Source: an uncultured Gammaproteobacteria bacterium (GTDB lineage Bacteria; Patescibacteriota; Microgenomatia; PFEM01; JAPLYW01). Taken from it: 64,000 bases of DNA. Position numbers and translations under genes: made by a program. The notes under the pieces were generated by a model that made no database searches, was not told the origin of the DNA, and saw nothing but the letters and a program-made list of their open reading frames with translations. Positions 1,814 to 24,530 of the stretch are shown here, piece by piece. How positions within the stretch are numbered: position 1 is the stretch's first letter; each line of letters starts with the position of its first letter. The DNA lies in assembly GCA_965230945.1 (NCBI GenBank), contig OZ246397.1, positions 374,284-438,283 on the forward strand, written 5' to 3'.

Positions 1814-2854
1814 TTAGGGAGTTAAGAGATATTCATCTTTAATGGCCGGAAGATATAAGCCAGCTTCTACGGCTTCCCCATCTTTAAGTTGGGCCGTACC
1901 AGTAATTAGAAAAACAGGCTGAAGATAAGTTTGCAAAGGGCTGTATTTATAATAAATAAGCTCTATATTTTCAAAACTTAAACTTCTTAGATTTTCAACA
2001 GCCTCTATTAAAATTAGATACTCATCAGAATATTTATCTTGCCTTTTAAGATAGCTTATTTTTGGATTTGCTTGAAGAGAACTGATAACTTCTTCTTTAC
2101 TTTTAAGTGGATAAGCATCGCCGGTCTTTATTTCTTCAAAGATTTTATTATAGTCAAAGCGGGCAGTTTTAAAATCAGAACCGATATAGAAACTAATATA
2201 ATTTAAGCCAGGTCCTTTAATCTTTTTGCCGTTTAATTTGTAAATAAATTTAATGTAAGTCAAGGTTGTTTCTTTGTCTTCTTGTTTTGATGGCATAAAA
2301 TAACTTCCTACTACCTTAACATAGTATTTTTCTTCTACCTGAAGATTGATTTTTTTCGGAATTAAAAACCCCCTCTTATTTAGAAACTCTTCCCCTTGAA
2401 TTTCTACTTCTTTAATTAAAGGAGGAGAACCACTAATAAGTTCAGGATGAGTTAAAAGGTTTAGGCCGTAACCAACAATACCTTCCTTAAGATAAATAGA
2501 TAAATTATTAAATTCTGTAGCCCAACTGTAAATAAAATTAGTGACGTTAGGTTTTTCTGTAAAACCAAAATCTAAAGCAATTTTTATAGCCTGTTGATCT
2601 GAGATTGAAGAGATACCAACTTCATAAACATTAATTTTTTTTTCAAAAGCAGGAAAGTTTTTTTGAAAGTCTTTAATATTAGGAGAAAAAGAGATAGAAA
2701 CTGTTTCTATCTCTGGAGAGCCAAGAGAAAGAAGTTGTTCTTGGGTTTCTTCTGTTTTTTTATTAATAAAAAAGATTGTTGCAAAAATAGTAGCGATGGT
2801 AGCGAGTAGAATAAATAACCAGTATTTAAAAATAAATTTTTTAATCTTTTTCAT
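1814..2854 (-). CDS. Hypothetical membrane-anchored protein (N-terminal TM, extracytoplasmic domain); last gene of the T4SS-like operon
   Basis: 346-aa ORF with N-terminal hydrophobic helix (WLFILLATIATIFATIFFI). Nearly contiguous with the upstream M23 peptidase gene. Confidence 0.5.
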   Translation of the reverse strand: MKKIKKFIFKYWLFILLATIATIFATIFFINKKTEETQEQLLSLGSPEIETVSISFSPNIKDFQKNFPAFEKKINVYEVGISSISDQQAIKIALDFGFTEKPNVTNFIYSWATEFNNLSIYLKEGIVGYGLNLLTHPELISGSPPLIKEVEIQGEEFLNKRGFLIPKKINLQVEEKYYVKVVGSYFMPSKQEDKETTLTYIKFIYKLNGKKIKGPGLNYISFYIGSDFKTARFDYNKIFEEIKTGDAYPLKSKEEVISSLQANPKISYLKRQDKYSDEYLILIEAVENLRSLSFENIELIYYKYSPLQTYLQPVFLITGTAQLKDGEAVEAGLYLPAIKDEYLLTP

Positions 2855-2859
2855 CTTTA

Positions 2860-5559
2860 CTATATATTACCACAGTAATAATCACATCCATACGGTACTG
2901 ATTTAGGGATGTTAGGTGGTGCCATCTTGATTTTCCGGTCTACAGATTTAAATTCATAATGAAGATGAGGCCCAGTACTATTGCCTGTATTGTCTGATAG
3001 AGCAATAAGACTTCCTTTATAAATAAATTGACCTATCGTTACTAAGATTTTTTGTAAATGGGCATAGTAGGAGGAGAAGTTAATACCATTACATTTTCCT
3101 GAAATAGATACAGAGATTCCTCCTCCACCATACTTTCCTATCGATTGCACAAAACCTTCATGGGTGGCGAAGATAGCAGTGCCATTATTAATGACAATAT
3201 CAATTGCTTCTTGGCCTGTATGACTAAATTCTCCATCAGGACCCTGGCTGATTCTGGCGCCTGAAGCATTAGCTGGCCAACCAGAAGGACAATCTCCTGG
3301 TGGCTTCCCAATAATAATTATGGCATTAGCTATACCTTTATGTATTCCTGTCTCTAGCCCTTCTGTTCCTTCTACTTCAGTATTAAGGGTGACGGTGTTG
3401 ATGATGGCGCTGTCTTTGAAATAGGAGTCGAAGGTTTTAATACAGGTTAAAGTTTCGGAGGAGCTTATTTTTTCTGGTAAATTGCCAAAATCACATGGAT
3501 TTACTGGGGAGGGGATTCCTTTTTGGGCTACTGTAAATTCTTCTGTTAGTTTAGGGCGAATTAAGACAAAATTGCCTTTTGGTTTAATGGTGATGGTGTA
3601 GGTGACTATAGCCGGCAGTTGATCATTTTCAAATTTGTTACTAGAAACGCTTTTGGTAAGTTCAAAAAATTCAGATTCATAAGGAGAAATTACTTCTTGT
3701 TCAGCTACCCCAATCGTTCCTGGAAGAATAAAAGCACCACTGACAACCATGACAATAAATAAGGTTAAGGCAGCTAAACTGGCAAAGATGATGATGATAA
3801 AAGAAGCCACAGCCGCTGTTACCGGAAGGGTGGTAATACTGGTGAAAAAAGCTCCAACGCCACTACTAATGGCGGTCATGGTGGTTGGCACGGCTACAAA
3901 ACTAACTAAACCACCAATACCAATACCTAGAGGAATAATACCGACAAGGGCAAAAGGCATAGGAGCGATAACTAGTACTAGAGATCCAGCTAGGACAGCC
4001 AAAAAAGCTTTTTGAGGATCACGGAAAACTTTTTGAATAAGACTGACTGCCTTTTTACCTAATTCTATAAGAACGGTTGCGGCTACAACTACCCAACCAG
4101 GGGGTCCTGTAGCCGCCCCAGCCGCAACGACACCAATCTTAATCCCCAGCTTAATAGCCAGCTTGGTACCGATCTTTTTAAGGCCTAATTTCAGAGATTT
4201 ACCAAAGGCAGTTTTACCTAACCACCGGGCTGTTTTTTGGAAAACACCTTTCTTAATGAAACCCGTTAATGATTGATATTTGCCTTTTGTTAAAAATTTA
4301 ATTGCTCTTTGAGAAATATTGCTGATGGAACGAAATCTGTCTAAGCCTGACTTTAGGTAGTAAGAGTAGCTACGTTCTTCCGCCCATAGGGATTTTTTTT
4401 GAAGAGGAAGAATAATGTTTAATGGTGGGTAGTAAACCCCTTTTTGATTGGTAAGGTCTTCGTACTGATAATAATTTCTAATAATTTTAAAAAGAGAAGG
4501 AGAAGTTTCTTCTAATTCTTTAAATTCAAAAATCCTTGCTTGAAGATGATTAATGACGGGGTGTTTTTCAGATAACCCCATTTCCTTTAGGGTTTCAAGG
4601 GTAATTTGCAAATCTTCAGGCAAGAGGCCCTTATTAATTAATTCTCGGTATTTGGGATTTATTTCTGAAATAGCTTCTTTTAAAGCGGCCACGCGGAATG
4701 AATAAAAAGCTTTCTTAACTAAAGCGGCGCTAGCTTTGGGCTGGAATAAAACAAAAGCGGGGTTAAGATTTAATTTTTCTCTTCCTAGTTGCTCTTTGAT
4801 TTTAAGAACAATTTCTTTAGGAAGAGGAGGAAGCTCTCCAGATCTAGTTGCCTCTTTTTTAATTCTCTTTAACTTTTCTCTGATGGCGGCTGATTCTCTA
4901 GGGATAACCGCTATTTGTTGGGCTTCTTTATATGTTAAAGCAGGAATTTCTTGAACTAAACTACTTGAAATAATTTCTTCTTTTTCAGCCCCTAAATTCT
5001 TAATTACTTGCCTAATTTCTGGCTCAAAGTCTTTAATAATTTTTTGGTATTCAACTTCATGAAGAAGAGTTTTTGTGGCCGTTTGAGGAAGACGATCAAC
5101 TATTTTTAAGGTTAAATTTTGACTGGCTAATGCTAATAGGGTTGGGTTTTCTGATAAGTTTGGTTTGGCTTTGATTAGCTGTTGTTTTATTTTTTCAAGA
5201 AATTGTTTTTGGATTTTTTCAATTTGTTCGTTTAAACCAGGATATGTAAACTTTACTTCTTTTTGATAACGATTATCTAGATATTTTTGATAATCTGCTT
5301 TTAAGATTTCATAAGGAGGTAGGTTGGGGGCGGGTAACTCTGGTGGTCTTGAGAGGATTTCATAAATTTTTTCTTGAATAAGGATAAGGAATTTGGGGTT
5401 ATCAGGGCTAAGTCCTAAACCGAGGGATTGTTCTAAATTAATAACCTCACTATAAGCTTTTTCTCTACTGATTATTCTTTCAAGTGGCCATTCTTTAAGT
5501 TGAAGAGCATAAGCTAAGATTTGCAGATTTTGATATCGTTTGCGTTCTTCTGAGGTCAT
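2860..5559 (-). CDS. Large polytopic membrane protein with C-terminal M23 (LytM-type) peptidase domain; candidate T4SS-associated cell-wall hydrolase
   Basis: 899 aa with a central cluster of TM helices. The C-terminus carries M23 motifs (HTGQEAIDIV...GPHLHYEF). It overlaps the VirB4 gene by 4 nt. Confidence 0.75.
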   Translation of the reverse strand: MTSEERKRYQNLQILAYALQLKEWPLERIISREKAYSEVINLEQSLGLGLSPDNPKFLILIQEKIYEILSRPPELPAPNLPPYEILKADYQKYLDNRYQKEVKFTYPGLNEQIEKIQKQFLEKIKQQLIKAKPNLSENPTLLALASQNLTLKIVDRLPQTATKTLLHEVEYQKIIKDFEPEIRQVIKNLGAEKEEIISSSLVQEIPALTYKEAQQIAVIPRESAAIREKLKRIKKEATRSGELPPLPKEIVLKIKEQLGREKLNLNPAFVLFQPKASAALVKKAFYSFRVAALKEAISEINPKYRELINKGLLPEDLQITLETLKEMGLSEKHPVINHLQARIFEFKELEETSPSLFKIIRNYYQYEDLTNQKGVYYPPLNIILPLQKKSLWAEERSYSYYLKSGLDRFRSISNISQRAIKFLTKGKYQSLTGFIKKGVFQKTARWLGKTAFGKSLKLGLKKIGTKLAIKLGIKIGVVAAGAATGPPGWVVVAATVLIELGKKAVSLIQKVFRDPQKAFLAVLAGSLVLVIAPMPFALVGIIPLGIGIGGLVSFVAVPTTMTAISSGVGAFFTSITTLPVTAAVASFIIIIFASLAALTLFIVMVVSGAFILPGTIGVAEQEVISPYESEFFELTKSVSSNKFENDQLPAIVTYTITIKPKGNFVLIRPKLTEEFTVAQKGIPSPVNPCDFGNLPEKISSSETLTCIKTFDSYFKDSAIINTVTLNTEVEGTEGLETGIHKGIANAIIIIGKPPGDCPSGWPANASGARISQGPDGEFSHTGQEAIDIVINNGTAIFATHEGFVQSIGKYGGGGISVSISGKCNGINFSSYYAHLQKILVTIGQFIYKGSLIALSDNTGNSTGPHLHYEFKSVDRKIKMAPPNIPKSVPYGCDYYCGNI

Positions 5560-7388
5560 GGAGTCTTTTTATCTTCAAATTGTTTTCTTAGGTTTTCTTT
5601 TATAGCTTGTTGCTGAAGAAGTTCTGATGGTTTGGTGGTGATAAACTTATGCTCTTCAGGTGAGGCAACGACTCTGATGGCCACATGATTAGCGCCGGCG
5701 AAGAAAAGACCTTCGCCTATATCAGCCGAAAGCAAAAGTTGTTTTTCTCCTTCAGATAAGTAGAAAGTCTGGGCGACTTTATCAATGGCCGCTGGCGATT
5801 GTTTCATAAGTATTTGGATAGAGGAGTTGGTAATGATGGCTTTGCCAAAATCGCTTATAAAAAAGTCTTCTACATCTTGGGTGATGGTAGTTAAACCTAG
5901 ATAATATTTTCTGGCTCGTTTGGCAATGGAGTAAAGGAAGTTGGCCGAATCTGGATATTTCATTAAATACCAAGCTTCATCAACAACCAAGATTCTTTTT
6001 TTCATTTCTTTTCTAATTCTGGTCCAGATATAATCTAGAACAATAAACATGGCAATGGGGCGCAAGGCTTCCTCTAAATCTCTTAAAGAAAAGACGGTAA
6101 AGGGGTTTTTAATATTGATGTTGGAATGCTGATCAAAAATACCAACAAAAGAGCCTTTAACAAACTTTTCGATGCGATCGGCTAAAGAACGGGCTTCAGG
6201 GCTCTCCATGCCGATTAAGGCTTTGTAAAGATCTTCCATAAGGGGTGGTTCTTTTTTTTGAGTATCCGGATCATTAGTGATTCCCTTCATTTTGTAGGTT
6301 AAAACTAAGGCTCGATCAAGGGTCGCTTCTTCAGAGGAAGAAAGTTGGCCCATGATAACCTTGCAAAGAGAATGTAGGGAAAGAATCTTTCTTCCCAGCT
6401 CATTTTCTCCTTCTTCATAAACATTAACTAAATCAAAGGGGTTGATTTTAGCCTGACTTCTGAAGCCAAAAGTAATGTATTCTCCACCCACGGCTTCAGC
6501 TAAGGCTTTGTATTCTGCTTCTGGATCGATAACAATGATTTCTGTGCCAAACATAAGAGAGCGTAGGGTTTCTAATTTGACTAGGTAAGACTTTCCCGCG
6601 CCAGATTTGGCAAAAATAACGGAGTTGGCATTTTCTAAACTGAAACGGTCAAAGATAATTAAAGAATCGTTGTGCTCATTAATGCCATATAAAACGCCTT
6701 CATTGGCGGTTAGTTCAGAGGAAGTGAAGGGAAAAGTAGTTGCCAATGAAGTGGTGTCCATGTTACGGGTGATCATGAGCTTATCTACACAGGTAGGAAT
6801 GGTGGTTTTAAAACCGTCTTCCATCTGCAGGGTGGCTTGTTTGGCGACGATTAAAAGAGAGCCTAAGGTAGAGATGATTTCTTTAGTAACTTTGTTTAAT
6901 TCTTCTAAAGATTTAGCGGGAATGGTGATGTAGAGTCCAAATTGAAAAAATCGTTCCGCTCCTCTTACAAGCTGTTCTTGTAAAGACTGAGCATCTTCTA
7001 ATTTAGCCTGGGTACTGGGGTTAATAATTCTGCCTCTTTCTAAATCAGTTTGGATTTCGGCTTCCATCTCGGCGATTTTGCGTCTTAGATTATCCAAAAC
7101 ACTTTTGCCTTCCACGGGGTAGATATACATGGCAATCTGCATAGAGTGGTCAAAATTGATTAAGGGAGCCAGCCAGTTAGCGGAGACAAAGCGAGGATAA
7201 CCCGCCACAAACAAGGTTCTAAAATAGCGGTTGCCAATCTTTAAATGATTAAAGTCAACTTCAATAGCTGGCGGGGCAATGATATCTTGAACATCAACCA
7301 TGCCTTGACCCAGCTGTTTGCTTGGTCCTTGAACTTGAGGTTCTTTTGCTTCTGCTTTTTTACTCTTTTTTAGAAACGGTAGTTCCAT
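5556..7388 (-). CDS. VirB4/TraC/CagE-family type IV secretion ATPase
   Basis: 610 aa. Walker A (FAKSGAGKSYLV) and Walker B (RILVVDEAWYLM) are present. The N-terminal region matches Gram-positive-type VirB4 (RTLFVAGYPRFVSANWLAPLI). Confidence 0.9.
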   Translation of the reverse strand: MELPFLKKSKKAEAKEPQVQGPSKQLGQGMVDVQDIIAPPAIEVDFNHLKIGNRYFRTLFVAGYPRFVSANWLAPLINFDHSMQIAMYIYPVEGKSVLDNLRRKIAEMEAEIQTDLERGRIINPSTQAKLEDAQSLQEQLVRGAERFFQFGLYITIPAKSLEELNKVTKEIISTLGSLLIVAKQATLQMEDGFKTTIPTCVDKLMITRNMDTTSLATTFPFTSSELTANEGVLYGINEHNDSLIIFDRFSLENANSVIFAKSGAGKSYLVKLETLRSLMFGTEIIVIDPEAEYKALAEAVGGEYITFGFRSQAKINPFDLVNVYEEGENELGRKILSLHSLCKVIMGQLSSSEEATLDRALVLTYKMKGITNDPDTQKKEPPLMEDLYKALIGMESPEARSLADRIEKFVKGSFVGIFDQHSNINIKNPFTVFSLRDLEEALRPIAMFIVLDYIWTRIRKEMKKRILVVDEAWYLMKYPDSANFLYSIAKRARKYYLGLTTITQDVEDFFISDFGKAIITNSSIQILMKQSPAAIDKVAQTFYLSEGEKQLLLSADIGEGLFFAGANHVAIRVVASPEEHKFITTKPSELLQQQAIKENLRKQFEDKKTP

Positions 7389-8181
7389 TTTTAATTAAAT
7401 CACTAATTTGGTTTTGAATATTGTTTTCTTTATTGGTTTTTGTTTTTTCTTTTTCTTCTAGAGGCTGGTTTTGAAGAGCAGCTTTGACCATCGGTGTTTG
7501 ATATTGAGAAGCTTCGGCCATTTGCTGGCCAGCTGATTCAGGATTATAAATGTCGTAAAAAAGACGAATTAATTCATGGTTATCAAGCTGATGGGCTTGA
7601 AGACCCAACCGCGAAAGCTGTCGCAAGAGATGGTCTCTTTTGGGGTAAAGGTTTATTTTGGCCTGCTGGATAATATACCCCTTATCTAAAGCTGGAGCTT
7701 GGCCTTGTTTTTTAAAGGGTAAATTAGACAAAGCAGAAGGAAGGGTAGTTTTTATGTTTTTAGCCAGCCCCATTTCTAAAGCTTCCATGGGAATGATGAT
7801 ATGGAATTTCTTATCCAAAACGTTGTTTTTTTGGACAGTTTCTTGGATAAATTCCTTGTATTTGGTAATTTGTTGTTTAATGAGTTGTCTTTTTTCTTTG
7901 GCTTCCCTTTCCGCTAGTAAAGCTAAATAAGAAGTAACATCTTTCCTGGTAGAGCGGATAAAAATCTGGATGGGGAAGGTTAAAGAATTTAATAAAGCAG
8001 CATAAGCATAAATGGTGGCTTCTTGCTCTTTTTCTGAAAGCAAACCGAAGTTAATGGCGGTGGTGCCGATAACAAGACAAGAAGAACCGTTTTTACGAAT
8101 GATAATCCCTTCTTGAATATCTTCTATTTCAAGATGATCTTGGGTTGAGGCCCTAATAGCCATTTTTATAGGATCAGCCAT
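7360..8181 (-). CDS. Hypothetical protein of the T4SS-like operon (no TM; N-terminal segment loosely resembling conjugative ATPase N-termini)
   Basis: 273-aa ORF that overlaps the VirB4 start by 29 nt and the upstream VirB3-like stop by 8 nt. It contains DIQEGIIIRKNGSSCLVIGTTAINFGLLSEKEQEATIYAYAALLNSLTFPIQIFIRS. Confidence 0.5.
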   Translation of the reverse strand: MADPIKMAIRASTQDHLEIEDIQEGIIIRKNGSSCLVIGTTAINFGLLSEKEQEATIYAYAALLNSLTFPIQIFIRSTRKDVTSYLALLAEREAKEKRQLIKQQITKYKEFIQETVQKNNVLDKKFHIIIPMEALEMGLAKNIKTTLPSALSNLPFKKQGQAPALDKGYIIQQAKINLYPKRDHLLRQLSRLGLQAHQLDNHELIRLFYDIYNPESAGQQMAEASQYQTPMVKAALQNQPLEEKEKTKTNKENNIQNQISDLIKNGTTVSKKE

Positions 8182-9178
8182 GTGATTGATCGGCCAGACC
8201 AGGATTAACTGGTGTGGCCACCCTTTCTTTAGCTCTAATTTCTATTGGCTGTATAATTTCGCCTTTAGTTTCAATTTTAATTAAATCAAACAAATAACCT
8301 TCTTTTTCAATTTCAATTTCATATTCTCCATTTTGCAGGGGGGTGGCAATCATAAACTGGCCAACTTTATTGGTTTTTAAGGCCCTGACAGGTAGGCCCT
8401 GAGCATCTCTGATTTCTAGGATAGCTCCTTCCATGATTTTACCTTCATGGTCTAAGGCCATACCGCTGATGATATTAGGCCTGGTAGGTGCTTCAGGGAT
8501 AGGCAGCTCTTTATTGATTTTGGCTTCTACAGCTGTTTTTTTAGGTCGGCCTGGTTTTTGTGGTAGAACCACAGGCGGTGGTATTATTTTTCGAAGGTCA
8601 ATTTTAGGTTCAGGCGGCATGGGTCTTGCCGTTGGAGAAGGAGTCATTGGTGGTGGACCAAGACCTGGTTCGGCTTGGGGTTGAACAGCTGCTATCGGGG
8701 TTGATTGGAAAAGATGATCAACTTCTTTTAGGAAACTTTCTTCTTGCTGATCAAGGGGATTTTTTTCTTCGCTATAAGGTAAGCTAGCTAGATATTGATT
8801 GAGCTCTCCTTTATCGCCTTGAAGAGAAGTTGGCTGTGCTTGAGGCATACTTGGATGATAGGGTAAGGGCTTAAAGACGTTTGGTTTTTTAACCTTCTTT
8901 TTCCAAATAAACTGGGTAGGAGAAAAGACGGCTTTAAAAAAAGATAGTAGCCAAGTGCTTAAAGGTCGTTCATTAATAGGCAAAAAGGCAAAGGCAAAGC
9001 CTAAAAAGCCAAAAAGAATAACCAACGGCCACTTAAATAAAGACGGTATCGGCAAGGCATAGGTAATAATGGCCAAAACCCCACCGGTAGCTAATTGGAA
9101 AAACTGCTTAAGAGTCATATCGCCGACAAGACGGAATTCGTATGAAGCGATATGTTGTGGGACAGGATGTTGTTCCAT
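8174..9178 (-). CDS. PrgI/VirB3-like small membrane module fused to a Pro-rich linker and C-terminal beta-sandwich-like domain
   Basis: The N-terminal ~95 aa are YEFRLVGDMTLKQFFQLATGGVLAIITYAL plus a second TM, which is PrgI/VirB3-like. A Pro-rich linker (PPPMTPSPTARPMPPEP) follows, then a C-terminal globular domain. It is the first gene of the operon. Confidence 0.55.
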   Translation of the reverse strand: MEQHPVPQHIASYEFRLVGDMTLKQFFQLATGGVLAIITYALPIPSLFKWPLVILFGFLGFAFAFLPINERPLSTWLLSFFKAVFSPTQFIWKKKVKKPNVFKPLPYHPSMPQAQPTSLQGDKGELNQYLASLPYSEEKNPLDQQEESFLKEVDHLFQSTPIAAVQPQAEPGLGPPPMTPSPTARPMPPEPKIDLRKIIPPPVVLPQKPGRPKKTAVEAKINKELPIPEAPTRPNIISGMALDHEGKIMEGAILEIRDAQGLPVRALKTNKVGQFMIATPLQNGEYEIEIEKEGYLFDLIKIETKGEIIQPIEIRAKERVATPVNPGLADQSHG

Positions 9179-9326
9179 AGGCAGGCTCCTTAACCTATTT
9201 TTAATGATAACTTTGTTATAGTAGTAAGTTCAACTACATAAAACATGATCAAATTAGAGACTAAAGAGAACAAATTTAAATTAATTAGGTGAAAGATTAA
9301 AAATTTGATATAATAACTTTGAGGAA

Positions 9327-11153
9327 ATGATGGAATCTAAAGGTGATGGCGGTCACAATTTTAATAAAGAAGTCAGTAAACCTGAAGGAAAGAGGATTAT
9401 TTGGTCTGAAATGGGAAGTCTTTTGAAGGATGACTCTAAAGGAGAAAAGGTTATAAAAAATCCCTTTTTGACTAGGTTAGTAAAACTTCTTTCGACAGCT
9501 GATGAAAAACGTCTTGCCGGTAAAAATTTAAGAGCCTGGCTTGATGAGGGAGATAAAAGGTGGGTTTTGGGTGATGTTTCTAAAGAAGAATGGGAAATTG
9601 TGGCTGGTGTGATAGCCGAGAGACTTGATAAGCTTGCAGGCGAGGGTGATGAAGATGCAGATTTGTCTAAGACTCTGGGGGAAAGTTTAGAAAAATCAGG
9701 AGAAAAGACAGTAAGAGCGATTAGGGATCTTAAAAATTCTCAGGAGAAAAGACAACAAATTCTTGCTGGAGAAAGAGAAGAAGAAGTCCCAGATGATGAA
9801 GAAAAACAGAGAATAAAGCTCATTATGATGGTAGAGAAGATTGAGAATAATAATCTGCCGTTGACTGACTATCGTAATACAGATATTGCCGGAAGGATAG
9901 GGACGATGATAGAAGATGAAAAGGTAAATGAGGATTTAAGAAAAGAGTGCATGGCAAGATTGAGGCTTCGTCATTGTTCAGCTATTGCTGATGCCATTCC
10001 TCCAGGTTCCAAATTAGCAAAAGAGTTTCTTATTGAATCACTTACTAATCCAGAGTCTAGATATTATGTACTTCAGGGTGATGATTTCGATTTACTTTTA
10101 AGGAAAGGCTTACCCGGCCTAAAGGTGGCTGAAGCTTTTAAACTTTTAGAGAAAGCTTCTACTTTAGGTAGAGAGATAATAGATGAAAAAGGTAAGAAGG
10201 TAAGAAAGACCTTAATGGATGAAAGTTTGTCTTTGTCGCAAAGGGAAACAATCCTGAGATCTATTATTGAAAATTTAGGTGGTGGGAAAGAAGCTAAAAA
10301 ATCTTTACAGCTAGCCCAGAGGATAGCGAAAGCTACTTTGGAGACTTCAGTTTGGAATGTAAATATACTAGGTAACGATCCCTTGTCTGAGATAATCTAT
10401 TTTAAAAATTACAGATTTGGTCGAGCTAAGACAGCTAGGGATAAAGGTCCGCTATTAACCATCAGTAGAATTGAGGGTTTTGGTAGCTCTTTTTTTAGAA
10501 GTGCGAAGAATTTTGATCAAAAGATGCTTTTCATGCCCAATGAAGATTTAAAGAAGATTAATAAAGAGAGTGATGATAGTGAGAGGATAAATAGGCTTTT
10601 ACTAAGAAACAGAGGTAGAGACGATGGCGGGAAGTTGAATAAAAATGTGGGGAGATTTGAGCGCTTTCTTGATATTGATGAAATGGAATTTACTGGAATT
10701 GCTCCAGATTCTTACTTAGTATGGCTTGGTCTTAACTTACCCAGATTATTTTTTGTTAAGGATTTGCTTCTTAAAACTCATTGGGAGCCCCAAGATTTTA
10801 ATTCAGATGCCATTGAAAGTTGGGCGAAGCCAATCTCTGTGGTCGATCCTGAAGAAATTTTAGGATTGAGAGTTGAATTTGTAGCTGGTGCTTTCTGGTC
10901 AATTTTTTCAAGACCATCTGAAGCAATGAATAGTGGTTGGGATGGTTTTAGCCTTCAGGCAGTTATAAAAAATTTGACTCGCAGTTTTGAAATTAAAGAT
11001 GAGGAAGGAAGAGAAAAGGAGATTTCTTTTTTAGATCAAGATCGCCGGAATTTTGTTATTAAATATCTTAAAAATTTTGGTATTAATATATATCATGAAG
11101 CGGCTAAAATTGGTACAAAAATTCGTTATACGAAGAGATTTATTGGTAGGTAG
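9327..11153 (+). CDS. Hypothetical protein (608 aa, charged, no recognisable domain)
   Basis: Long ORF transcribed divergently from the T4SS-like operon. Confidence 0.5.
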   Translation: MMESKGDGGHNFNKEVSKPEGKRIIWSEMGSLLKDDSKGEKVIKNPFLTRLVKLLSTADEKRLAGKNLRAWLDEGDKRWVLGDVSKEEWEIVAGVIAERLDKLAGEGDEDADLSKTLGESLEKSGEKTVRAIRDLKNSQEKRQQILAGEREEEVPDDEEKQRIKLIMMVEKIENNNLPLTDYRNTDIAGRIGTMIEDEKVNEDLRKECMARLRLRHCSAIADAIPPGSKLAKEFLIESLTNPESRYYVLQGDDFDLLLRKGLPGLKVAEAFKLLEKASTLGREIIDEKGKKVRKTLMDESLSLSQRETILRSIIENLGGGKEAKKSLQLAQRIAKATLETSVWNVNILGNDPLSEIIYFKNYRFGRAKTARDKGPLLTISRIEGFGSSFFRSAKNFDQKMLFMPNEDLKKINKESDDSERINRLLLRNRGRDDGGKLNKNVGRFERFLDIDEMEFTGIAPDSYLVWLGLNLPRLFFVKDLLLKTHWEPQDFNSDAIESWAKPISVVDPEEILGLRVEFVAGAFWSIFSRPSEAMNSGWDGFSLQAVIKNLTRSFEIKDEEGREKEISFLDQDRRNFVIKYLKNFGINIYHEAAKIGTKIRYTKRFIGR

Positions 11154-11165
11154 TTTTTAGCAATA

Positions 11166-12650
11166 TTATGTATGATAGTGTTTTTGTTTTTTTGCCTGTT
11201 CTAAGTCCACTTCTTTTTCTTTTCCAGCGGAGATTGATGGGAAAACACGTTGTTTTATATAAGTGCCACCAAGATCTTTTGCTTGTTCCCACCCCCATCT
11301 AACAGGTGCAGTGACTGGGGCTAAGGTTTGGCCAAGAGCTGTTCCATATTCAAATGGTTTTTTGGTAATAGCAGATTGGATTATGTCAGCTGCTTTGGGG
11401 ATAAGCAGGATAATAAAAATTCCAACGAAAGGGAAGATGAGGGTGGTGAGTATCCAGAATGGACCGTATGTTGCGCTAGTCTTCAAAATACTCCCTAGGC
11501 CGATGAAGTTAAACTCTGCTATAGCTGTTAAAGCCTTACCATAGTCACCTGTAAGTTTTCCAATTGCTTCTAAAACGCCTGTGATCATAAGGTAAAAGCC
11601 AAGAAGAAGCATAGTAAGCATTGTGGGTAAAACAGCAATGTTGGCTAGGAGGTTTTTAAACCAGGCTCCCATAGCGTTGCTTCCAGGCAAAACTCCTATT
11701 AGGATTTGGAATGGAGCAAAGATAAGATTGATAACTATCATCGCAAAGGCTTTAAGTAAGGTCCAGAGGGCACGAAAGAATGCAATTAATAAAAGAAGCC
11801 CAATAATTAAGTTTAAAATTAATCCAAGGGGAAAGAGAAAGATGAAAAACATAAAAATATAGGGAGCGGCAAGGAGCATAACGAAATAGTTAGTAAGTAG
11901 GCCTAAGGCAAGACCGCCTAGCCCCATATCAGCACCAAAAAAGTCTAAGGCGCTATTTTTTAAGGTTCCTCCAAGCCCCTCAAATAATTCAACAGTAAGA
12001 CCCCAAAAGATATTACCGATAACCCCATTTATAAAAAAGGCGACATCAATTAACAAGCCTACGATTGCGTAAGAGAGGGTAATCAAAATTAAAGCAAAAA
12101 CAACTCGTGGTAGAGCAGATTGAATAGTAATTACGGCTTGGGGGGAGATTTTTACTCGGAACATAATAGCAAAGCCCATTCCTACCAAAATAAGAGCAAA
12201 GAGAATATAGGAGATATTACGAAAAGCTTTCCAAATGTTTTGGGTTATCGCCATAATTTTATACCCAGAAACGATTTTTTCTTGAGCGTAAACAGGCTTT
12301 GTAATTCCTAACTGCCTCCCGATATCAGCGAAATACTGAACCCCAGAAGCCGGTGGAGAACTATAAATACCGGCAATTAAAATCGTTGTCGCTCCAAGTA
12401 AACCTGGATTTTTTTCTCTAGCTTCAGGATCCCAAAAATTGCCAATAATAAAATGTTGAATTGAACCAGCAATAGCTTTCATTGTTTCATTAACAAAGCT
12501 TTGGAGGTTCATTTCTTCCGCCTTGATGGCTTCTTCAAATTGGAATTGGCTACCTTTGGTTTCAAAGGCTAAAGCGGGGCGAAGAAACAAAGGAAGAATC
12601 AGAAGAAAGATAAGAATTCCTAAAACGACTTTTCTTTTTTTGGCAGGCAT
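11166..12650 (-). CDS. VirB6/TrbL-like polytopic membrane protein
   Basis: 494 aa with signal peptide (LGILIFLLILPLFLRPALAFE) and an ~110-aa extracytoplasmic region. Six or more TM helices follow. It sits beside the pilin genes and the VirB4 locus. Confidence 0.6.
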   Translation of the reverse strand: MPAKKRKVVLGILIFLLILPLFLRPALAFETKGSQFQFEEAIKAEEMNLQSFVNETMKAIAGSIQHFIIGNFWDPEAREKNPGLLGATTILIAGIYSSPPASGVQYFADIGRQLGITKPVYAQEKIVSGYKIMAITQNIWKAFRNISYILFALILVGMGFAIMFRVKISPQAVITIQSALPRVVFALILITLSYAIVGLLIDVAFFINGVIGNIFWGLTVELFEGLGGTLKNSALDFFGADMGLGGLALGLLTNYFVMLLAAPYIFMFFIFLFPLGLILNLIIGLLLLIAFFRALWTLLKAFAMIVINLIFAPFQILIGVLPGSNAMGAWFKNLLANIAVLPTMLTMLLLGFYLMITGVLEAIGKLTGDYGKALTAIAEFNFIGLGSILKTSATYGPFWILTTLIFPFVGIFIILLIPKAADIIQSAITKKPFEYGTALGQTLAPVTAPVRWGWEQAKDLGGTYIKQRVFPSISAGKEKEVDLEQAKKQKHYHT

Positions 12651-12704
12651 ATTAGTTAATTAAACGATAACATCAATTAGTACGAAATTCAACAACTACT
12701 CTTC

Positions 12705-14453
12705 CTATTTTTTGGGTCGTAAAGCTTCATTAACAACATATTCTTTCGCTTTTTGAACCCCGCCAAGGTGGGGGAAATAAAATAAACCTTTTTGGGGAGA
12801 AACATCTGGGTCATAGCTGTAAGAAACTGTGTCTGCTGCGGCTATATCGTCAAAAACTGGGTAGCTATGAGGGCGAAAGATATTAAAGAAACCGCCATTA
12901 GCATTGGCAGTATAACTCCAGATTTCGTCTAGATAAGGATGATAAAGATTGACACCAAAACCGCGGGAAACATCCTTTTCAGCTGGATCATTGCAAGATG
13001 CTGAAGGAGAGGCACTTAAAATACATTCGTCATAAAAAGGATTATCAAATTCTTCCTGAGCAACTAATTTTCCTGTGATTTCTTGACAACAAAGTTCGTC
13101 ACCATCCTCGTTGGCTAAAAGATAATTTTCTTTAAAGCAGGCGTAGGGTGGGGTGGTTTTGGAGATTTCGGGAGTTTTAACCATTTCAATTTCTTTGCCT
13201 TTTGGAGTAAGGATTTGGCTGATGATTTGGCTTCCCTCATAAAGCCGAGCCAAATGAGGTACAGCCTCAATTTTAGCTTCTTCAACTTCAAAAGTATCTT
13301 CTGGATGTTCATAAGCCAAATAGGGATCAATTTTACCTTGAATATCTTCCCGACTTAACATTGGTGTTGCCTGCCAAAGCCGATACCATTCCCCCTCATC
13401 TCTATTTTTCCATTCTAAAAAATCCTCTTTATATTTTAAAAAATCTTCTTGGTATTTTTCTTCATTTGGGTTAGGGGGAGGGATAATTTCAGAAAGATTT
13501 TCCTCTTCTGTTTTGCCTGTATAGATATGAACTATTCCTGGTATTTTCTGAGAGAGTTCAGTCAAACCCTTATAAATGTCTCCAATAATAGGTGCTTTTT
13601 CAATGAAATCGCTTGTTTTGGCAACAAACCAACCAGGGGTTCCTTCTTGAAGACTAGCATAAAGACAGTAGTGGCCAATATCTGGAATATCTAGTTTAAT
13701 TTCTGGGGGGTTTTCATAATTCAAAATGTGGCTAAAAAAGGCGATAATCTTGTTGACTGTCTCACGGTTGACAAAATCAACGATTTCTTCACCAACAAAC
13801 TTAGTTGCATCTAGCCAAAAAGGAAAGTCCCAACAAAAGCGGCCAATATATTTAATCTTGTAATCATGAATCTCTTTTTCTTGAGCTCTTGTTATCAATT
13901 GTTTTTTAAGTTGATTTTGATATTCAAAGGGTGTGAGTTTTCTTAATATTCCTTGATAATTAGTGAGAGTGGTTTTATTGCCATGATTGCGATAATATTC
14001 ATCAGTTCCCTCTAGATAATCAGCTAGATATTTTTCTTCGCTGGCATTAGAAATTTCCCAAAACTGGAACAATGTTTCTTCTTCCATATTTCTTTTACCG
14101 ACAAAAGGAATTTTGATTTCGGTGGGGTCGATAGTTACATTACCAGTCCAGTCTTCTTTAATAATTTCACCTTCGTTTTTGCGATATTCAATTTCATCAA
14201 ATACTTCAAAAGAGGTAGCACAAAAGGGAGTAAGGGGAGCTTCCTTATCGCATAAATTGCATTTTGCCGGTCGAGGATCTCTTTCTAATGAAGTTTCGCC
14301 AGGATCACATTCAACTTCAGCAGGCCCTAGGGATTTAGCGAAAATTGATTGAACACCAAATTTGGAAAAGGAGAAAATAATAAAAAAAATAAGCAAAAAA
14401 AATAAGGCGGCCTTTTTCATTAAAGAAAATCTAAGGATTGAGCAGGGTTTCAT
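12705..14453 (-). CDS. Secreted Cys-rich protein (candidate pilus-associated adhesin/tip protein)
   Basis: 582 aa with N-terminal signal/TM and many Cys pairs (CDPGETS, CNLCDKEAPLTPFC, CCQEITG). It lies between the VirB6-like gene and the pilin array. The true start is probably the internal MKKAAL (about 14420). Confidence 0.5.
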   Translation of the reverse strand: MKPCSILRFSLMKKAALFFLLIFFIIFSFSKFGVQSIFAKSLGPAEVECDPGETSLERDPRPAKCNLCDKEAPLTPFCATSFEVFDEIEYRKNEGEIIKEDWTGNVTIDPTEIKIPFVGKRNMEEETLFQFWEISNASEEKYLADYLEGTDEYYRNHGNKTTLTNYQGILRKLTPFEYQNQLKKQLITRAQEKEIHDYKIKYIGRFCWDFPFWLDATKFVGEEIVDFVNRETVNKIIAFFSHILNYENPPEIKLDIPDIGHYCLYASLQEGTPGWFVAKTSDFIEKAPIIGDIYKGLTELSQKIPGIVHIYTGKTEEENLSEIIPPPNPNEEKYQEDFLKYKEDFLEWKNRDEGEWYRLWQATPMLSREDIQGKIDPYLAYEHPEDTFEVEEAKIEAVPHLARLYEGSQIISQILTPKGKEIEMVKTPEISKTTPPYACFKENYLLANEDGDELCCQEITGKLVAQEEFDNPFYDECILSASPSASCNDPAEKDVSRGFGVNLYHPYLDEIWSYTANANGGFFNIFRPHSYPVFDDIAAADTVSYSYDPDVSPQKGLFYFPHLGGVQKAKEYVVNEALRPKK

Positions 14454-14455
14454 TT

Positions 14456-14824
14456 TTAATCTAGCGTTTTATAAGGAATTGTTATGTTTGTAGTAAGGTT
14501 GATGCCGGTGAATTTTTCTAAAAAGAGCATTATAAACCAGGCGGCGATGACCGTTACTAGGCCGAAGATAGCATAGGTGATGGTTTGACTTGCAGCTTGG
14601 GTTCTTTTAGGATCACCACCAGCAGTAAGATATTGGAAACCACCGACAATAAGCATAATGAAAGCAGCGATTCCAGCTAATCGAACAACGATATTAAGAA
14701 TTCTTGAGATAATGGAACCTAGGTCTTCAATTTTTGCCGGTTGATCAGGATCGGCTTCGTTTGACCATCCTTGAGCCAAAACAAGCGCCGGCAACATGGC
14801 TAGATAAGAGGTAATTTTCTTCAC
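14456..14824 (-). CDS. VirB2/TrbC-like pilin paralog 1
   Basis: 122 aa with a signal-peptide-like N-terminus. Two hydrophobic helices are separated by the loop TAGGDPKRTQAASQ. Confidence 0.65.
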   Translation of the reverse strand: MKKITSYLAMLPALVLAQGWSNEADPDQPAKIEDLGSIISRILNIVVRLAGIAAFIMLIVGGFQYLTAGGDPKRTQAASQTITYAIFGLVTVIAAWFIMLFLEKFTGINLTTNITIPYKTLD

Positions 14825-14894
14825 GCTTTAAATTTACACTAAAAAAATATACCCGTCAAGAAAAGTAGTTTAAATAATTAAACCCTTTTGTTGC

Positions 14895-15149
14895 CTAGAC
14901 GGTTGGGATGCTTAAGGTTAAGATTTGGATACCAAAGAAGGTTTCAATTAACCTTATAATAGCCCAAGCAGCAAAAACAATGACTAAGCCAACTAAGGCA
15001 GCCGTCAAGGTTTGTTGAGCATTAGCTGTTTTTTCTTTATCGCCACCTGAGGTAACCCATTTAATACCACCGATGATTAGGAAGATAAAGGCGATTAAGG
15101 CAGCAATGACTAAAATTAAGCGGATGGCGCCAGAAACAATTCTAGGCAC
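14895..15149 (-). CDS. VirB2/TrbC-like pilin paralog 2 (annotated from GTG; an N-terminal leader is likely encoded upstream from a non-AUG start up to about 15260)
   Basis: Two-helix core with the loop TSGGDKEKTANAQQ. The in-frame upstream extension has no ATG but sits 7 nt after a strong SD (GGAGGTG). Confidence 0.55.
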   Translation of the reverse strand: MPRIVSGAIRLILVIAALIAFIFLIIGGIKWVTSGGDKEKTANAQQTLTAALVGLVIVFAAWAIIRLIETFFGIQILTLSIPTV

Positions 15150-15312
15150 TGTTAATTCAGCTAGATTGGCAAATTGGCCTCCTGGAGCAAGATCAATTTC
15201 TTCAGCTGCAAAAACAACAGCAGGGAGTATATTTTTGATTTTACTAATTAGTTTTTTAATATTTTTTCACCTCCTTTCACTTTAATAATATTATTATGCT
15301 TCTTACTTACTG

Positions 15313-15684
15313 TCAAATTGTACCGGCTGTTGGTAAAGGAATTTTCAGATCTTTAAGCCAGCCTAGTCCAAAGATACTGCCAATAAAATTAGCAATGGCA
15401 AAAACACAGATGAGAATGATAAAGCCAACAATGGCATTGCTAAGTCTTCTTTGGGCGCCCTGAAGTCTTTCTTTATCAGAGCCGCTGGTGGCCCAGGCAA
15501 TACCACTCCAGACAATCATGATTAGAAGTATGATTGCGCCGGCAATAATCATCATATTGATAATATTAGCGAGTAGTTGTCCAATAATAACTGGTCCGGC
15601 ATCGGTGCCGCCCCTACCAAATTTAGGCACTAGAGGGTTATAAATAGTGCCTTCTTGAGCGAAAACAGTCTTTATTATTTTCAT
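15313..15684 (-). CDS. VirB2/TrbC-like pilin paralog 3
   Basis: 123 aa two-helix protein with the loop ATSGSDKERLQGAQ. Confidence 0.65.
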   Translation of the reverse strand: MKIIKTVFAQEGTIYNPLVPKFGRGGTDAGPVIIGQLLANIINMMIIAGAIILLIMIVWSGIAWATSGSDKERLQGAQRRLSNAIVGFIILICVFAIANFIGSIFGLGWLKDLKIPLPTAGTI

Positions 15685-16052
15685 TGGCCTCCAATGTTTA
15701 TAATATTGGTAATAGCTTCATTAATTTCTAAAAACCTTACCCCAAAAATTTTCCCTACCAGAGCTATTAATGCATAGGCTCCAACAACAATGGCCAGACC
15801 AATAATAGAGTTAGTTAATTTACGGCCAGCATTAACGAGTCTTTCTCTATCTCCACCAGCGCTTAAGTAGTTGTAGCCAGCAACAATAACCTGGAATAGA
15901 AACCAAATACCAGCACCAATAGTCATTGCTCCTATGGCTATACTAATGATGTCAGCAAGAATAACTCCTGGCTGTTCTGGGCTAACCCAAGGTCCTAAAC
16001 CTTCTCCTCCAATGGTGCCTAATTCTTTGTCTGCTAGTAATATTCTTGTCAT
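15681..16052 (-). CDS. VirB2/TrbC-like pilin paralog 4
   Basis: 123 aa with the loop SAGGDRERLVNAGR. Confidence 0.65.
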   Translation of the reverse strand: MTRILLADKELGTIGGEGLGPWVSPEQPGVILADIISIAIGAMTIGAGIWFLFQVIVAGYNYLSAGGDRERLVNAGRKLTNSIIGLAIVVGAYALIALVGKIFGVRFLEINEAITNIINIGGQ

Positions 16053-16053
16053 T

Positions 16054-16461
16054 TTATTCCCCTGGTCCGTAAATAACTGGTTTTAAAATAGCGGTGGCAT
16101 TACCAAATAAAAGTAAACCTAATAATCCAGCTAAGGCAAAGGAGCCAATGATAATTAATAGCCCTACCATTGATTGCCAGATCTTAGCCCAGGCAAGTTC
16201 GACTTTTTTAGGATCACCAGCGGCGCTCATAAATTGGTATCCAGCTAAAATGAAATTGAACAAAGCCCAAATTCCGGCACCAACAACAAGAAGTTTAAGA
16301 ATGTTATTAAAGAGAACGATCATTCCTTCTGGTCCTCCCCCAGGATATAACTTTTCAAGCGCCTCTGGGGGCTTTATTTTACCGAAAATACCTCCTGTCT
16401 TTATTGAGCTGCCTTTCCCTGCGTCTATATCTTGATATAGAGATGCTAGTCTATTTATCAT
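16054..16461 (-). CDS. VirB2/TrbC-like pilin paralog 5
   Basis: 135 aa with the loop SAAGDPKKVELAWA. Confidence 0.6.
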   Translation of the reverse strand: MINRLASLYQDIDAGKGSSIKTGGIFGKIKPPEALEKLYPGGGPEGMIVLFNNILKLLVVGAGIWALFNFILAGYQFMSAAGDPKKVELAWAKIWQSMVGLLIIIGSFALAGLLGLLLFGNATAILKPVIYGPGE

Positions 16462-16802
16462 AAGCCTGAGTTAAAAATATTGATTCCTGTTACAATTTCG
16501 ATAATTCTTATAATCCAAAAGGAACAAAAGATGATAACAAAGCCAATTAAAGCAGCCGTAATTGCTTGTTTGCCTTTTTTGGCTTGTTCTGGATTCTCTT
16601 GTCCTGCTCCCATCATAAACATAAATCCACCGACAATCAAGAGTATGAAAAGAATTATTCCAGCAAGGATATAAATGTTGTTTAAAAGATTGGAAATTAT
16701 TTCTCCAATTGAACCAAACCCAGGAGCATCTTTAATACCGGTATTTTGTTTAACCCAAAAATCTTCACCGATATTTATCTTAAAAGCAAGTAATTTTTTC
16801 AC
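16458..16802 (-). CDS. VirB2/TrbC-like pilin paralog 6
   Basis: 114 aa with the loop GAGQENPEQAKKGKQ. Confidence 0.6.
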   Translation of the reverse strand: MKKLLAFKINIGEDFWVKQNTGIKDAPGFGSIGEIISNLLNNIYILAGIILFILLIVGGFMFMMGAGQENPEQAKKGKQAITAALIGFVIIFCSFWIIRIIEIVTGINIFNSGL

Positions 16803-16856
16803 CGCCTTAGTTTAGCAAGATTTAGTTAAAAGTGTCAACAAAAAGTTAGACTTTAA

Positions 16857-17597
16857 ATGTTTAAAGTGCTAGAATCAGTACTTACCGTGGCCAAGTTAGA
16901 ACTAGATATGGACAATATTCCTCAGCATATTGGTATTATTATGGATGGTAATCGAAGATGGGCAGAAAAGAAAGGTCTAGGCGTTGATGAAGGCCATGAG
17001 GAAGGTTTAAGAGCTTTAGAAAAAATTGTTGATCATTGTTTAGAATTAGGAGTAAGGAATTTGACCGTTTATGCTCTTTCTACTGAAAATTGGCGAAAAA
17101 GAACGAAAAGTGAGGTAAAAGGCATTTTCAGTCTTTTACTTAGGGTTTGTAAAGAAAAGAAAGAGAAATACCAAAAAAGAGGCATTAAATTTGTGGTTTT
17201 GGGTGAGTTTCAAGCTTTTCCCCGCAAGGTGGCTCGAGCCATTAAAGAAGTGCTTGACATTATTAAGAAAAATGAACGCTTAAGAGTTAATGTTGCTTTA
17301 AATTATGGAGGTCGAGATGAAATTCTTCGAGCTGTTAAAGAAGTTATATCTCATAAAATTCCCGCCAAAAAAATTAATGAAAAAATCTTTGGCAAATTCC
17401 TTTATACCAGTGGTGAACCTGATCCTGATTTAATTATTCGCACTGGAGGAGAAGTTAGACTTTCTAATTTTCTTTTATGGCAGATCTCTTATGCTGAACT
17501 TTACTTTACTAATGTTTTATGGCCTGATTTTACCCCAAAAGAGTTAGACAAAGCGATTATTGAATACCAGAGGAGAAAAAGAAACTTCGGGAAGTAG
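16857..17597 (+). CDS. uppS: Undecaprenyl diphosphate synthase (isoprenyl transferase)
   Basis: UppS motifs DGNRRWA, STENWRR and RTGGEVRLSNFLLWQISYAELYF. Confidence 0.93.
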   Translation: MFKVLESVLTVAKLELDMDNIPQHIGIIMDGNRRWAEKKGLGVDEGHEEGLRALEKIVDHCLELGVRNLTVYALSTENWRKRTKSEVKGIFSLLLRVCKEKKEKYQKRGIKFVVLGEFQAFPRKVARAIKEVLDIIKKNERLRVNVALNYGGRDEILRAVKEVISHKIPAKKINEKIFGKFLYTSGEPDPDLIIRTGGEVRLSNFLLWQISYAELYFTNVLWPDFTPKELDKAIIEYQRRKRNFGK

Positions 17598-17915
17598 TTA
17601 TCTTAAAATACTTATTCCAAAAACAATTTCTAGAATTCTCATTAGCCAATAGCTGATAAAAATAATAACAAAGCCAATAATTGCCGAGGTGATTCTTCCC
17701 TGAGCGGTTTTAACCTTGTCTGGATTACCGCCAGAAGTTAAAAGGCCAAATCCACCCATAATTAGCATAATAAATAAAACTAAGCCAGCAATGGTAAAAA
17801 TATAAGGAATTAATGCAGAGATAATATCACTGATACTGGCATCTTTAAATTTAAAACCAATAGGTTCGGTAATTTCTTTTTCTACTCCTGGTAAAGTTAA
17901 AGCTAATTTTTTCAT
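17598..17915 (-). CDS. VirB2/TrbC-like pilin paralog 7 (start taken at the internal MKKLALTL)
   Basis: Loop TSGGNPDKVKTAQG. The stop of the upstream paralog lies 1 nt before this ATG. Confidence 0.6.
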   Translation of the reverse strand: MKKLALTLPGVEKEITEPIGFKFKDASISDIISALIPYIFTIAGLVLFIMLIMGGFGLLTSGGNPDKVKTAQGRITSAIIGFVIIFISYWLMRILEIVFGISILR

Positions 17916-17916
17916 T

Positions 17917-18186
17917 TTATTTGAACCCCGGAATCTCAAGAATATCATGGCCAAGAAGTCTCAGTATAAAAACAGAAAAGATGATTAAAAGTAGGCCAGC
18001 AATGGCCGAGGTAATCATTTCCTTACCAGCTTTGACTCTATCTGGGTTACCTGCTGATAGAATAATTTGAAAACCGCCAAAAACAATAAGTAAAAAAGCA
18101 ATTACTCCACCTAGACCCATGGCGATTGGGAGTATGTTGTTGATTTTTTCAGCGAGGTCTTCCATATGTTGCTTAAATTCTATCAC
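17917..18186 (-). CDS. VirB2/TrbC-like pilin paralog 8
   Basis: 89 aa with the loop SAGNPDRVKAGKE. Confidence 0.6.
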   Translation of the reverse strand: MIEFKQHMEDLAEKINNILPIAMGLGGVIAFLLIVFGGFQIILSAGNPDRVKAGKEMITSAIAGLLLIIFSVFILRLLGHDILEIPGFK

Positions 18187-23238: not shown

Positions 23239-23583
23239 GGGGATGTAAGAATCGACGGAAAAGTTCTTTAAAAGACTGCAGGCCGAGAATGATACTGCTC
23301 GTTAAAGTGTATCGAAAACAATTGGCGTAAATAAAAACGCTCCTGTTTACGCATACGCTTAAACAGTGCCCATTTTCTTCTTTCTTGGTGGGATGAATGG
23401 GTATCAACAAAGCCAAGATGCGATCTTAATGTTTGATTCACATTAAGGTTTAAGCCTGAGAATCTTTACCTTAACTTTCCGGTCAACAGGATCAGGTTAA
23501 GGCGAGAATTAAAAGTTGACTAAGCTTGTAGAAGTTTTTTAATAATTTTTTCGGACCCCGTTTCATCGCGGGCATCTCCACCA
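23239..23583 (+). ncRNA. ssrA: tmRNA (SsrA)
   Basis: The 5' end GGGGATGTAAGAATCGACGG matches tmRNA 5' ends. The 3' end GACTAAGCTTGTAGAAG...TTTCGGACCCCGTTTCATCGCGGGCATCTCCACCA matches the tmRNA tRNA-like domain and encodes CCA. The acceptor pairs GGGGATG with CATCTCC. It lies immediately 3' of smpB. Confidence 0.8.
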
Positions 23584-24404: not shown

Positions 24405-24416
24405 CTTAAAATTTGA

Positions 24417-24503: not shown

Positions 24504-24530
24504 CTTCCATGTTATAATTAATTTGGAAAG

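Follow-up and report, generated by a model that had tools for sequence, protein, structure and literature searches.

The 64-kb stretch of contig OZ246397.1 analysed here (the window) carries, at positions 1814-18186, a locus of sixteen genes for a pilus apparatus related to type IV secretion systems (T4SS) and one unrelated gene, uppS, arranged in three transcription units. The locus is very probably a chromosomal, relaxase-free T4SS/pilin cluster of MPF_FATA origin that serves as an exchange apparatus on contact with a host cell. An earlier note on this DNA had proposed a chromosomal pilus apparatus, T4SS-like but not conjugative, in an ultra-small episymbiont, and the proposal is borne out by conserved gene order, by the lack of signs of mobility and by a class of such systems that two publications describe (PMC12102498, PMC10633639). 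The components which that note had listed are all present, although a TrsD-like gene (7360-8181) and a gene for a 346-residue bitopic protein (1814-2854) had escaped it.

The comparisons draw on 445 confirmed VirB4 relatives in a species-level genome collection, with loci compared for the best 80 of the 445 and positions relative to dnaN counted in the 56 loci with enough downstream sequence (downstream-complete loci). PF18895, PrgI, Peptidase_M23 and similar assignments are Pfam profile matches, and VirB4 and the TrsD-like protein were also scored against NCBIfam.

Core proteins of the apparatus

The core and envelope components of the locus are as follows.

5556-7388, minus strand: VirB4-type ATPase (NF045971, P-loop_TraG and CagE_TrbE_VirB matches)
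7360-8181, minus strand: TrsD-like protein, 273 residues, free-standing homologue of the VirB4 N-domain (TrsD, VirB4_plasma and PF26593 matches)
8174-9178, minus strand: PrgI/VirB3-like protein, 334 residues (PrgI, 6.1e-5; CarboxypepD_reg, 5.3e-4)
11166-12650, minus strand: polytopic membrane protein, 494 residues (predicted VirB6-like fold, place in the T4SS core)
2860-5559, minus strand: membrane M23 hydrolase, 899 residues (Peptidase_M23, 2.9e-19 at residues 783-876)
1814-2854, minus strand: bitopic membrane protein, 346 residues, encoded at the end of the PrgI-to-orf346 operon (transmembrane helix at residues 6-33 followed by a domain outside the cytoplasm)

The VirB4 ATPase matches NCBIfam NF045971, the VirB4-like CD1110 family, at 3.9e-118 and 395.8 bits against a cutoff of 325 bits, over model positions 179-733 of 752, and Pfam P-loop_TraG (5.5e-28) and CagE_TrbE_VirB (1.2e-4); in its translation the Walker A (KSGAGKS) and Walker B (LVVDEAW) motifs are both intact. 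These matches assign it to the monoderm MPF_FATA/CD1110 kind, without the N-terminal domain. Since the match begins at model position 179, the missing N-domain would be supplied by the TrsD-like gene upstream, whose reading frame overlaps virB4 by 29 nt and which occurs in 73 of the 80 related loci. This protein matches NCBIfam TrsD (2.8e-4) and positions 103-315 of the VirB4_plasma model (8.8e-7), and has a precomputed match to the TraC-like family PF26593.

The 80 best VirB4 relatives are 67-88% identical to the window's protein and all come from CPR (candidate phyla radiation)/Microgenomatia genomes (Shapiro-, Gottesman-, Beckwith-, Chisholm- and Woykebacteria), whereas the closest plasmid VirB4s, all of them from monoderms (Streptomyces, Pontibacillus, Embleya and Clostridium), are 32-39% identical, with 39% as the maximum. 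We use this difference in identity, rather than a tree, as a proxy for membership of the Patescibacteria clade, which a published survey (PMC12102498, Quinonero-Coronel et al. 2025) places within MPF_FATA and reports from 2,417 of 3,035 genomes. Record titles are unreliable: many public entries that clearly belong to Microgenomatia, given their synteny and a VirB4 identity of 70-88%, are titled 'uncultured Gammaproteobacteria' or 'Pseudomonadales', and one such entry is titled Bathyarchaeia and another Nanoarchaeia.

The PrgI match of the 334-residue protein reaches 23.9 bits and falls under the Pfam cutoff of 27 bits, but PrgI is matched by 41 of 41 orthologues (best 2.3e-10) and CarboxypepD_reg by 38 of the 41. 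The protein is three times the usual length, with a Pro-rich linker leading to a C-terminal CarboxypepD_reg-like beta-sandwich. Two transmembrane helices are predicted, and the second is followed by KKKVKK, which would place the beta-sandwich in the cytoplasm, an odd location for such a fold.

The 494-residue protein, encoded within the T4SS core, has a predicted polytopic helical fold like that of TrwI/VirB6 and is proposed as the channel and pilus-assembly platform. The earlier assignment to VirB6/TrbL by family thus stands at the level of the predicted fold but not of sequence models: the TrbL/VirB6 models matched none of the 51 members of the family, Pfam gave nothing in all 51, PDB profiles gave no match to the protein, and hhalign against the TrbL-like proteins of plasmid relatives returned a probability of 2%. 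The Microgenomatia VirB6, reported as scarce, may be recoverable by fold where hidden Markov models fail.

The 899-residue protein consists of an N-terminal region of about 480 residues, a block of four transmembrane helices at residues 490-620 and a C-terminal M23 metallopeptidase in which the HLH (HxH) motif and the YAHL motif, with the catalytic His, are conserved; it is a predicted functional analogue of VirB1. It is present in 38 of the 56 downstream-complete loci. In the orthologues at related loci L012 and L025 the N-terminal and transmembrane parts are kept and an SLT-like head (MGPMQFEEKTW) replaces M23; the hydrolase module appears to have been swapped between relatives. Homologues of the 346-residue bitopic protein occupy the same position in 27 of the 56, and the protein itself has no match in Pfam, NCBIfam, PHROG or PDB. 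A candidate likeness to the transmembrane and Pro-rich region of VirB10 (E 0.14) was rejected as compositional.

Position at the replication origin and tests of mobility

The cluster adjoins the replication origin, as it does in most Microgenomatia. The genes beside and inside it that do not belong to the apparatus are as follows.

9-461, plus strand: C-terminus of dnaA (translation; Bac_DnaA Pfam match on the matching contig)
689-1813, plus strand: dnaN (translation; DNA_pol3_beta Pfam match on the matching contig)
16857-17597, plus strand: uppS, undecaprenyl diphosphate synthase (Prenyltransf, 1.4e-79)

To the left of the window, on a matching JGI contig, rnpA-yidD-yidC-jag are divergent from dnaA, and this arrangement is the canonical origin region. 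Both dnaA and dnaN were found in 63 of the 80 related loci. In the downstream-complete loci dnaN is always present (56/56), at a median distance of 2.8 kb from virB4, and it is convergent with the cluster in all but one (55/56). The gene order common to Microgenomatia is pilins, Cys-rich protein, VirB6-like protein, PrgI, TrsD, VirB4 and hydrolase, followed by convergent dnaN-dnaA, and the PrgI, TrsD and VirB4 proteins of related loci have median identities of 44-70% to those of the window. The same order and the convergent dnaN in 55 of 56 loci indicate an old, fixed chromosomal feature, in agreement with the synteny that the earlier note had suggested examining. The plus-strand GC skew is positive, and transcription of the cluster is therefore head-on to replication.

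Unit 1 runs on the minus strand from 9178 to 1814 (PrgI-like, TrsD-like, VirB4, M23 protein and 346-residue bitopic protein), unit 2 from 16802 to 11166 (six pilins, Cys-rich protein and 494-residue polytopic protein) and unit 3 from 18186 to 17598 (two pilins). Within the units most genes overlap at their stop and start codons or are separated by gaps of a few bases. The locus had been described as one fully co-oriented minus-strand block, which does not hold, as it is broken by two plus-strand genes, a 608-residue ORFan (9327-11153) and uppS (16857-17597). The latter is a housekeeping gene inside the pilin array and no part of the apparatus, and it is found at this position in only one of the 80 related loci. 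A polyprenyl synthase gene stands divergent from the pilin array in two distant relatives (L090:5376-6497; L091:3476-4591); that carrier-lipid (isoprenoid) genes adjoin pilin arrays may perhaps be chance. A promoter and terminator scan of the locus gave no more sites than shuffled sequence, and two perfect TTGACA boxes, at 16838 and at 15316, both upstream of pilin genes, are suggestive only.

The origin context bears directly on whether the locus could instead be an integrated conjugative element, or the decayed remnant of one near the origin, with its relaxase and coupling protein outside the window. VirB4 does belong to the conjugative family CD1110, related clusters in Actinomycetota with the same core order carry a type IV coupling protein (T4CP) and a Replic_Relax relaxase, and the part of the genome that we inspected comprises the window and 5 kb of its left flank. 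Conjugative relatives, however, carry T4CP and relaxase right beside virB4, and here no T4CP, relaxase or integrase domain was detected in any tested open reading frame (ORF) of the window, nor in the 5 kb to its left; six-frame tblastn of the window with T4CPs and relaxases from the related plasmid clusters also returned nothing (best E 0.015). The earlier statement that the 64 kb lacks VirD4, relaxase and integrase was therefore correct within these searches. Scanned ORFs of at least 174 residues outside the locus are housekeeping genes, with four that gave no family match. There are no att-like flanking repeats and no flanking tRNA around the block, and the G+C content is uniform (0.33-0.40), with no shift that would mark a compositional island. 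Every core gene is intact and coupled in translation, and VirB4 identity tracks taxonomy across genomes of several candidate orders that share the site and the orientation relative to dnaN. In addition, relaxases are reported from only 103 of 3,035 Patescibacteria genomes in the published survey (PMC12102498). With dnaN lying downstream of virB4 and convergent to it in all but one of the 56 loci, the cluster is very unlikely to be an integrated conjugative element, and we give this explanation hardly any weight.

Several features were noted elsewhere in the window. Just downstream of rpoD, a tRNA gene (29508-29770, plus strand) has its anticodon loop interrupted by a group I intron (Rfam RF00028, 81.5 bits, 29548-29724); the intron search of ARAGORN names this tRNA-Asp(gtc), an identity made doubtful by the mature length of 85 nt and the long variable arm. 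A tmRNA gene (23239-23583, plus strand; Rfam, 121 bits), missed by ARAGORN, ends 33 nt upstream of the listed start, 23616, of a comFC-like ORF, and six tRNA genes follow at 24318-25863 on the plus strand, four for Ser and two for Arg isoacceptors, with two small ORFs between them. Two tandem genes for class A penicillin-binding proteins (768 and 745 residues; 56955-61516, minus strand) are adjoined by a beta-lactamase-family gene (56009-57001).

Pilin array, Cys-rich protein and opposite-strand slot

The remaining genes of the apparatus encode the predicted pilins, a Cys-rich protein and the 608-residue ORFan.

14456-14824, minus strand: pilin paralog (PF18895, 2e-12)
14895-15149, minus strand: pilin paralog (PF18895, 9e-11)
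15313-15684, minus strand: pilin paralog (PF18895, 1.5e-7)
15681-16052, minus strand: pilin paralog (PF18895, 2.1e-3, below cutoff)
16054-16461, minus strand: pilin paralog (PF18895, 3.2e-4, below cutoff)
16458-16802, minus strand: pilin paralog (PF18895, 5.3e-11)
17598-17954, minus strand: pilin paralog (PF18895, 3.5e-10)
17917-18186, minus strand: pilin paralog (PF18895, 5.9e-11)
12705-14453, minus strand: exported Cys-rich protein, 582 residues (N-terminal signal or anchor; start probably at Met12)
9327-11153, plus strand: soluble, highly charged ORFan, 608 residues, in the slot after the VirB6-like gene

The eight small proteins are predicted to be VirB2-like (PF18895) pilins, an assignment that the earlier note had also made and that the profile searches support: six of the eight pass the PF18895 cutoff and the other two align over the same two-helix hairpin. 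This hairpin, common to all eight, consists of two hydrophobic helices and a short basic loop with G(G/A)G-(D/N)P. The pilins are 27-42% identical to the first of the array (14456-14824), and residual DNA repeats in the array, D1 and D2, are decayed pilin duplications.

The 582-residue protein contains 12 Cys, of which about 11 are conserved, and matches no solved fold. Its family is small, with 370 representative clusters among 1.84 billion, and members usually carry the conserved module C-terminally, after variable add-ons, namely a GH5 cellulase, Glyco_hydro_cc, a beta-sandwich (CarboxypepD_reg) or the immunoglobulin-like Big_1. In five relatives the Cys-rich module and a VirB2-like pilin hairpin are found in one polypeptide, and two of these fusions (L090:10001-14089; L091:8323-11967) sit exactly between a pilin array and the gene for the VirB6-like protein. 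The fusions and their shared slot suggest display of the Cys-rich module on the pilus or together with it, making the protein a candidate pilus-associated surface module.

The slot after the VirB6-like gene is conserved in position and hypervariable in content. In 24 of the 25 loci surveyed it holds a large opposite-strand ORF whose product is highly charged (26-37%) and lacks transmembrane helices, and the 33 such ORFs fall by sequence into 20-22 unrelated clusters. The 608-residue protein of the window has 4 homologues among 5.8 billion proteins, no Pfam, NCBIfam or PDB match, and neither a secretion signal nor a known effector domain in these searches. We also consider, as a doubtful combination, that the Cys-rich protein is a pilus-borne host-binding module, that the product of 9327-11153 is a lineage-specific substrate or host-specificity factor, and that the pilus came from a pilin-bearing monoderm ancestor.

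Proposed function and comparison with known systems

We propose that the apparatus descends from monoderm MPF_FATA conjugation machinery whose DNA-processing module, relaxase and coupling protein, would have been lost. VirB4, with the TrsD-like homologue of its N-domain and the PrgI/VirB3-like adaptor, would dock on the VirB6-like platform, and the VirB4 complex would extract VirB2-like pilins from the membrane for polymerisation into a filament or conduit, while the membrane-anchored M23 peptidase would open the peptidoglycan for its passage. The Cys-rich exported protein would act as a surface module associated with the pilus, and the eight divergent pilins may give alternative or mixed filament surfaces. 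The assembled apparatus would thereby mediate contact-dependent exchange with the host cell rather than conjugation.

What is exchanged can be addressed by analogy. The ComB system of H. pylori and the crenarchaeal Ced system are chromosomal, have no relaxase or coupling protein, and consist of a minimal VirB4-like ATPase, a VirB6-like protein and small pilin-like proteins. Because VirB4, VirB6-like protein and pilins without a locus-encoded coupling protein correspond to the make-up of these systems, we weakly and tentatively prefer uptake of host macromolecules over export or adhesion only.

A machine that exports effectors into the host, possibly including the hypervariable slot protein, is a somewhat unlikely alternative that is favoured by groups working on Saccharibacteria. 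A gene for a fast-evolving soluble protein in a conserved slot is what would be expected of a host-specific substrate, and the Ptl and Brucella VirB systems export proteins without a T4CP; yet the locus encodes no coupling protein that could recruit cytoplasmic substrates, neither a secretion signal nor a known effector domain was found in the 608-residue protein, and the slot proteins show no detectable mutual homology, so that a common role is only putative. An adhesion pilus without transport would also account for the eight pilin paralogs and for the glycosidase or immunoglobulin-like add-ons of the Cys-rich relatives, and conjugative pili do act chiefly as attachment organelles. We regard it as rather improbable, as adhesion and motility are already served by type IV pili that these genomes encode, and the retained VirB6-like channel and peptidoglycan hydrolase fit a conduit that spans the envelope. 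Host attachment and DNA uptake are both hypotheses at present, since no member of the class has a demonstrated function (PMC11665869), and reviews call the role of the Patescibacteria T4SS 'completely unknown'.

Several observations weigh against the proposed host-contact exchange apparatus. Import is preferred by analogy, and the sequence affinity to Ced is weak, with matches of 2.3e-13 to the CedB model and 1.1e-6 to CedD that are far weaker than those to the conjugative VirB4 models. The systems of Microgenomatia are known from genes alone, with no filament observed; two of the eight pilins fall under the Pfam cutoff; the VirB6 assignment comes from fold and position, with non-significant Foldseek E-values; and the predicted topology of the C-terminal domain of the PrgI-like protein is ambiguous. 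A distant virD4 homologue elsewhere in the genome is possible, and the survey reports a VirD4 homologue in most Patescibacteria genomes, far from virB4 (PMC12102498).

The closest known system is the Patescibacteria-clade T4SS of that survey, from which the locus shows no essential difference. Shared features are the MPF_FATA VirB4, the TrsD-like and PrgI genes upstream of virB4, the PF18895 array, the M23-type hydrolase, the lack of a relaxase or T4CP nearby and the adjacent dnaA and dnaN; the survey accordingly lists TrsD and PrgI as adjoining virB4, reports hydrolases of the M23 and LysM types, and in Microgenomatia and Paceibacteria finds dnaA and dnaN to be the most frequent neighbours. 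The gene composition had been called unusual in the earlier note, whereas arrays of 2-11 VirB2-like genes of about 25% identity, especially in Microgenomatia and Saccharimonadia, and a large peptidase by virB4 are the published norm for the clade. The class, its proximity to the origin, the pilin arrays, the missing relaxase and the peptidase are thus already in print (Wang 2023; Quinonero-Coronel 2025), and the window is one more well-preserved example of a known system. To this the present analysis adds a structural handle on the 'missing' Microgenomatia VirB6, which the survey finds 'scarce' and whose predicted fold is recovered here, a conserved Cys-rich family whose physical link to pilins appears in fused genes, a hypervariable slot as a possible place for substrates, and homologous pilins in T4SS clusters of Actinomycetota and Bacillota. 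The Cys-rich family, the opposite-strand slot and the C-terminal domain of the PrgI-like protein are not described in the accessible text of the survey (PMC12102498).

In Southlakia epibionticum ML1, the T4SS SEML1_0006-0019 is essential for epibiotic growth according to transposon sequencing (Tn-seq; Wang et al. 2023, PMC10633639). Its order is the same, with hydrolases, VirB4 (612 residues), TrsD-like (293 residues) and long PrgI (300 residues) proteins, a large protein, a VirB6-like protein and six pilins, its locus tags come right after the origin, and it too has no recognisable coupling protein or relaxase. It differs in belonging to the class Saccharimonadia, in its VirB6-like protein of 1088 residues compared with 494 here, in an NTF2-like (VirB8-like) gene, of which we found none in our locus, in pilins on the strand opposite to the core and in a slot protein, SEML1_0011, with the same orientation as the core; in the published gene table no homologue of the 582-residue Cys-rich protein was identified. 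The comEC-dependent competence of Southlakia is separate and dispensable. Apart from the T4SS of Patescibacteria, no T4SS is known without which its bearer does not grow, and the cargo of the Patescibacteria system bears on how ultra-small epibionts live off their hosts.

The monoderm conjugative MPF_FATA systems of the CD1110 type, for example on C. botulinum pCDC3875 and on Embleya and Streptomyces plasmids, share the order of the core genes, namely VirB6/TrbL-like protein, PrgI, in part the TrsD-like protein, VirB4 and a cell-wall hydrolase. In contrast to our locus they are plasmid-borne, have a relaxase and a coupling protein of the VirD4 type beside virB4, have one or two pilins rather than eight, and bear an SLT or NlpC/P60 hydrolase head instead of M23. 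In four of the five closest plasmid VirB4 clusters, those of Streptomyces (L087), Pontibacillus (L084), Priestia (L088) and Embleya (L085), PF18895 pilins stand at the same relative position, upstream of TrbL-like, PrgI, TrsD and VirB4; the fifth match, a second Embleya record, lay outside the Pfam examination, and tblastn of the pilins against plasmids is too insensitive to gauge how frequent such pilin-bearing monoderm clusters are. The Streptomyces and Embleya clusters also encode T4CP and a Replic_Relax relaxase, whereas the Pontibacillus cluster lacks both, encodes an M23 protein as our locus does and has flagellar genes on its flanks, and the Priestia cluster is likewise relaxase-free. 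The presence of PF18895 pilins in these monoderm clusters of Actinomycetota and Bacillota speaks for a pilus inherited from a monoderm ancestor. It is also at odds with published statements that the T4SS classes of Gram-positive bacteria lack VirB2 pilins and, if true, would mean that pili of the VirB2 type are built by some conjugation systems of Gram-positive bacteria.

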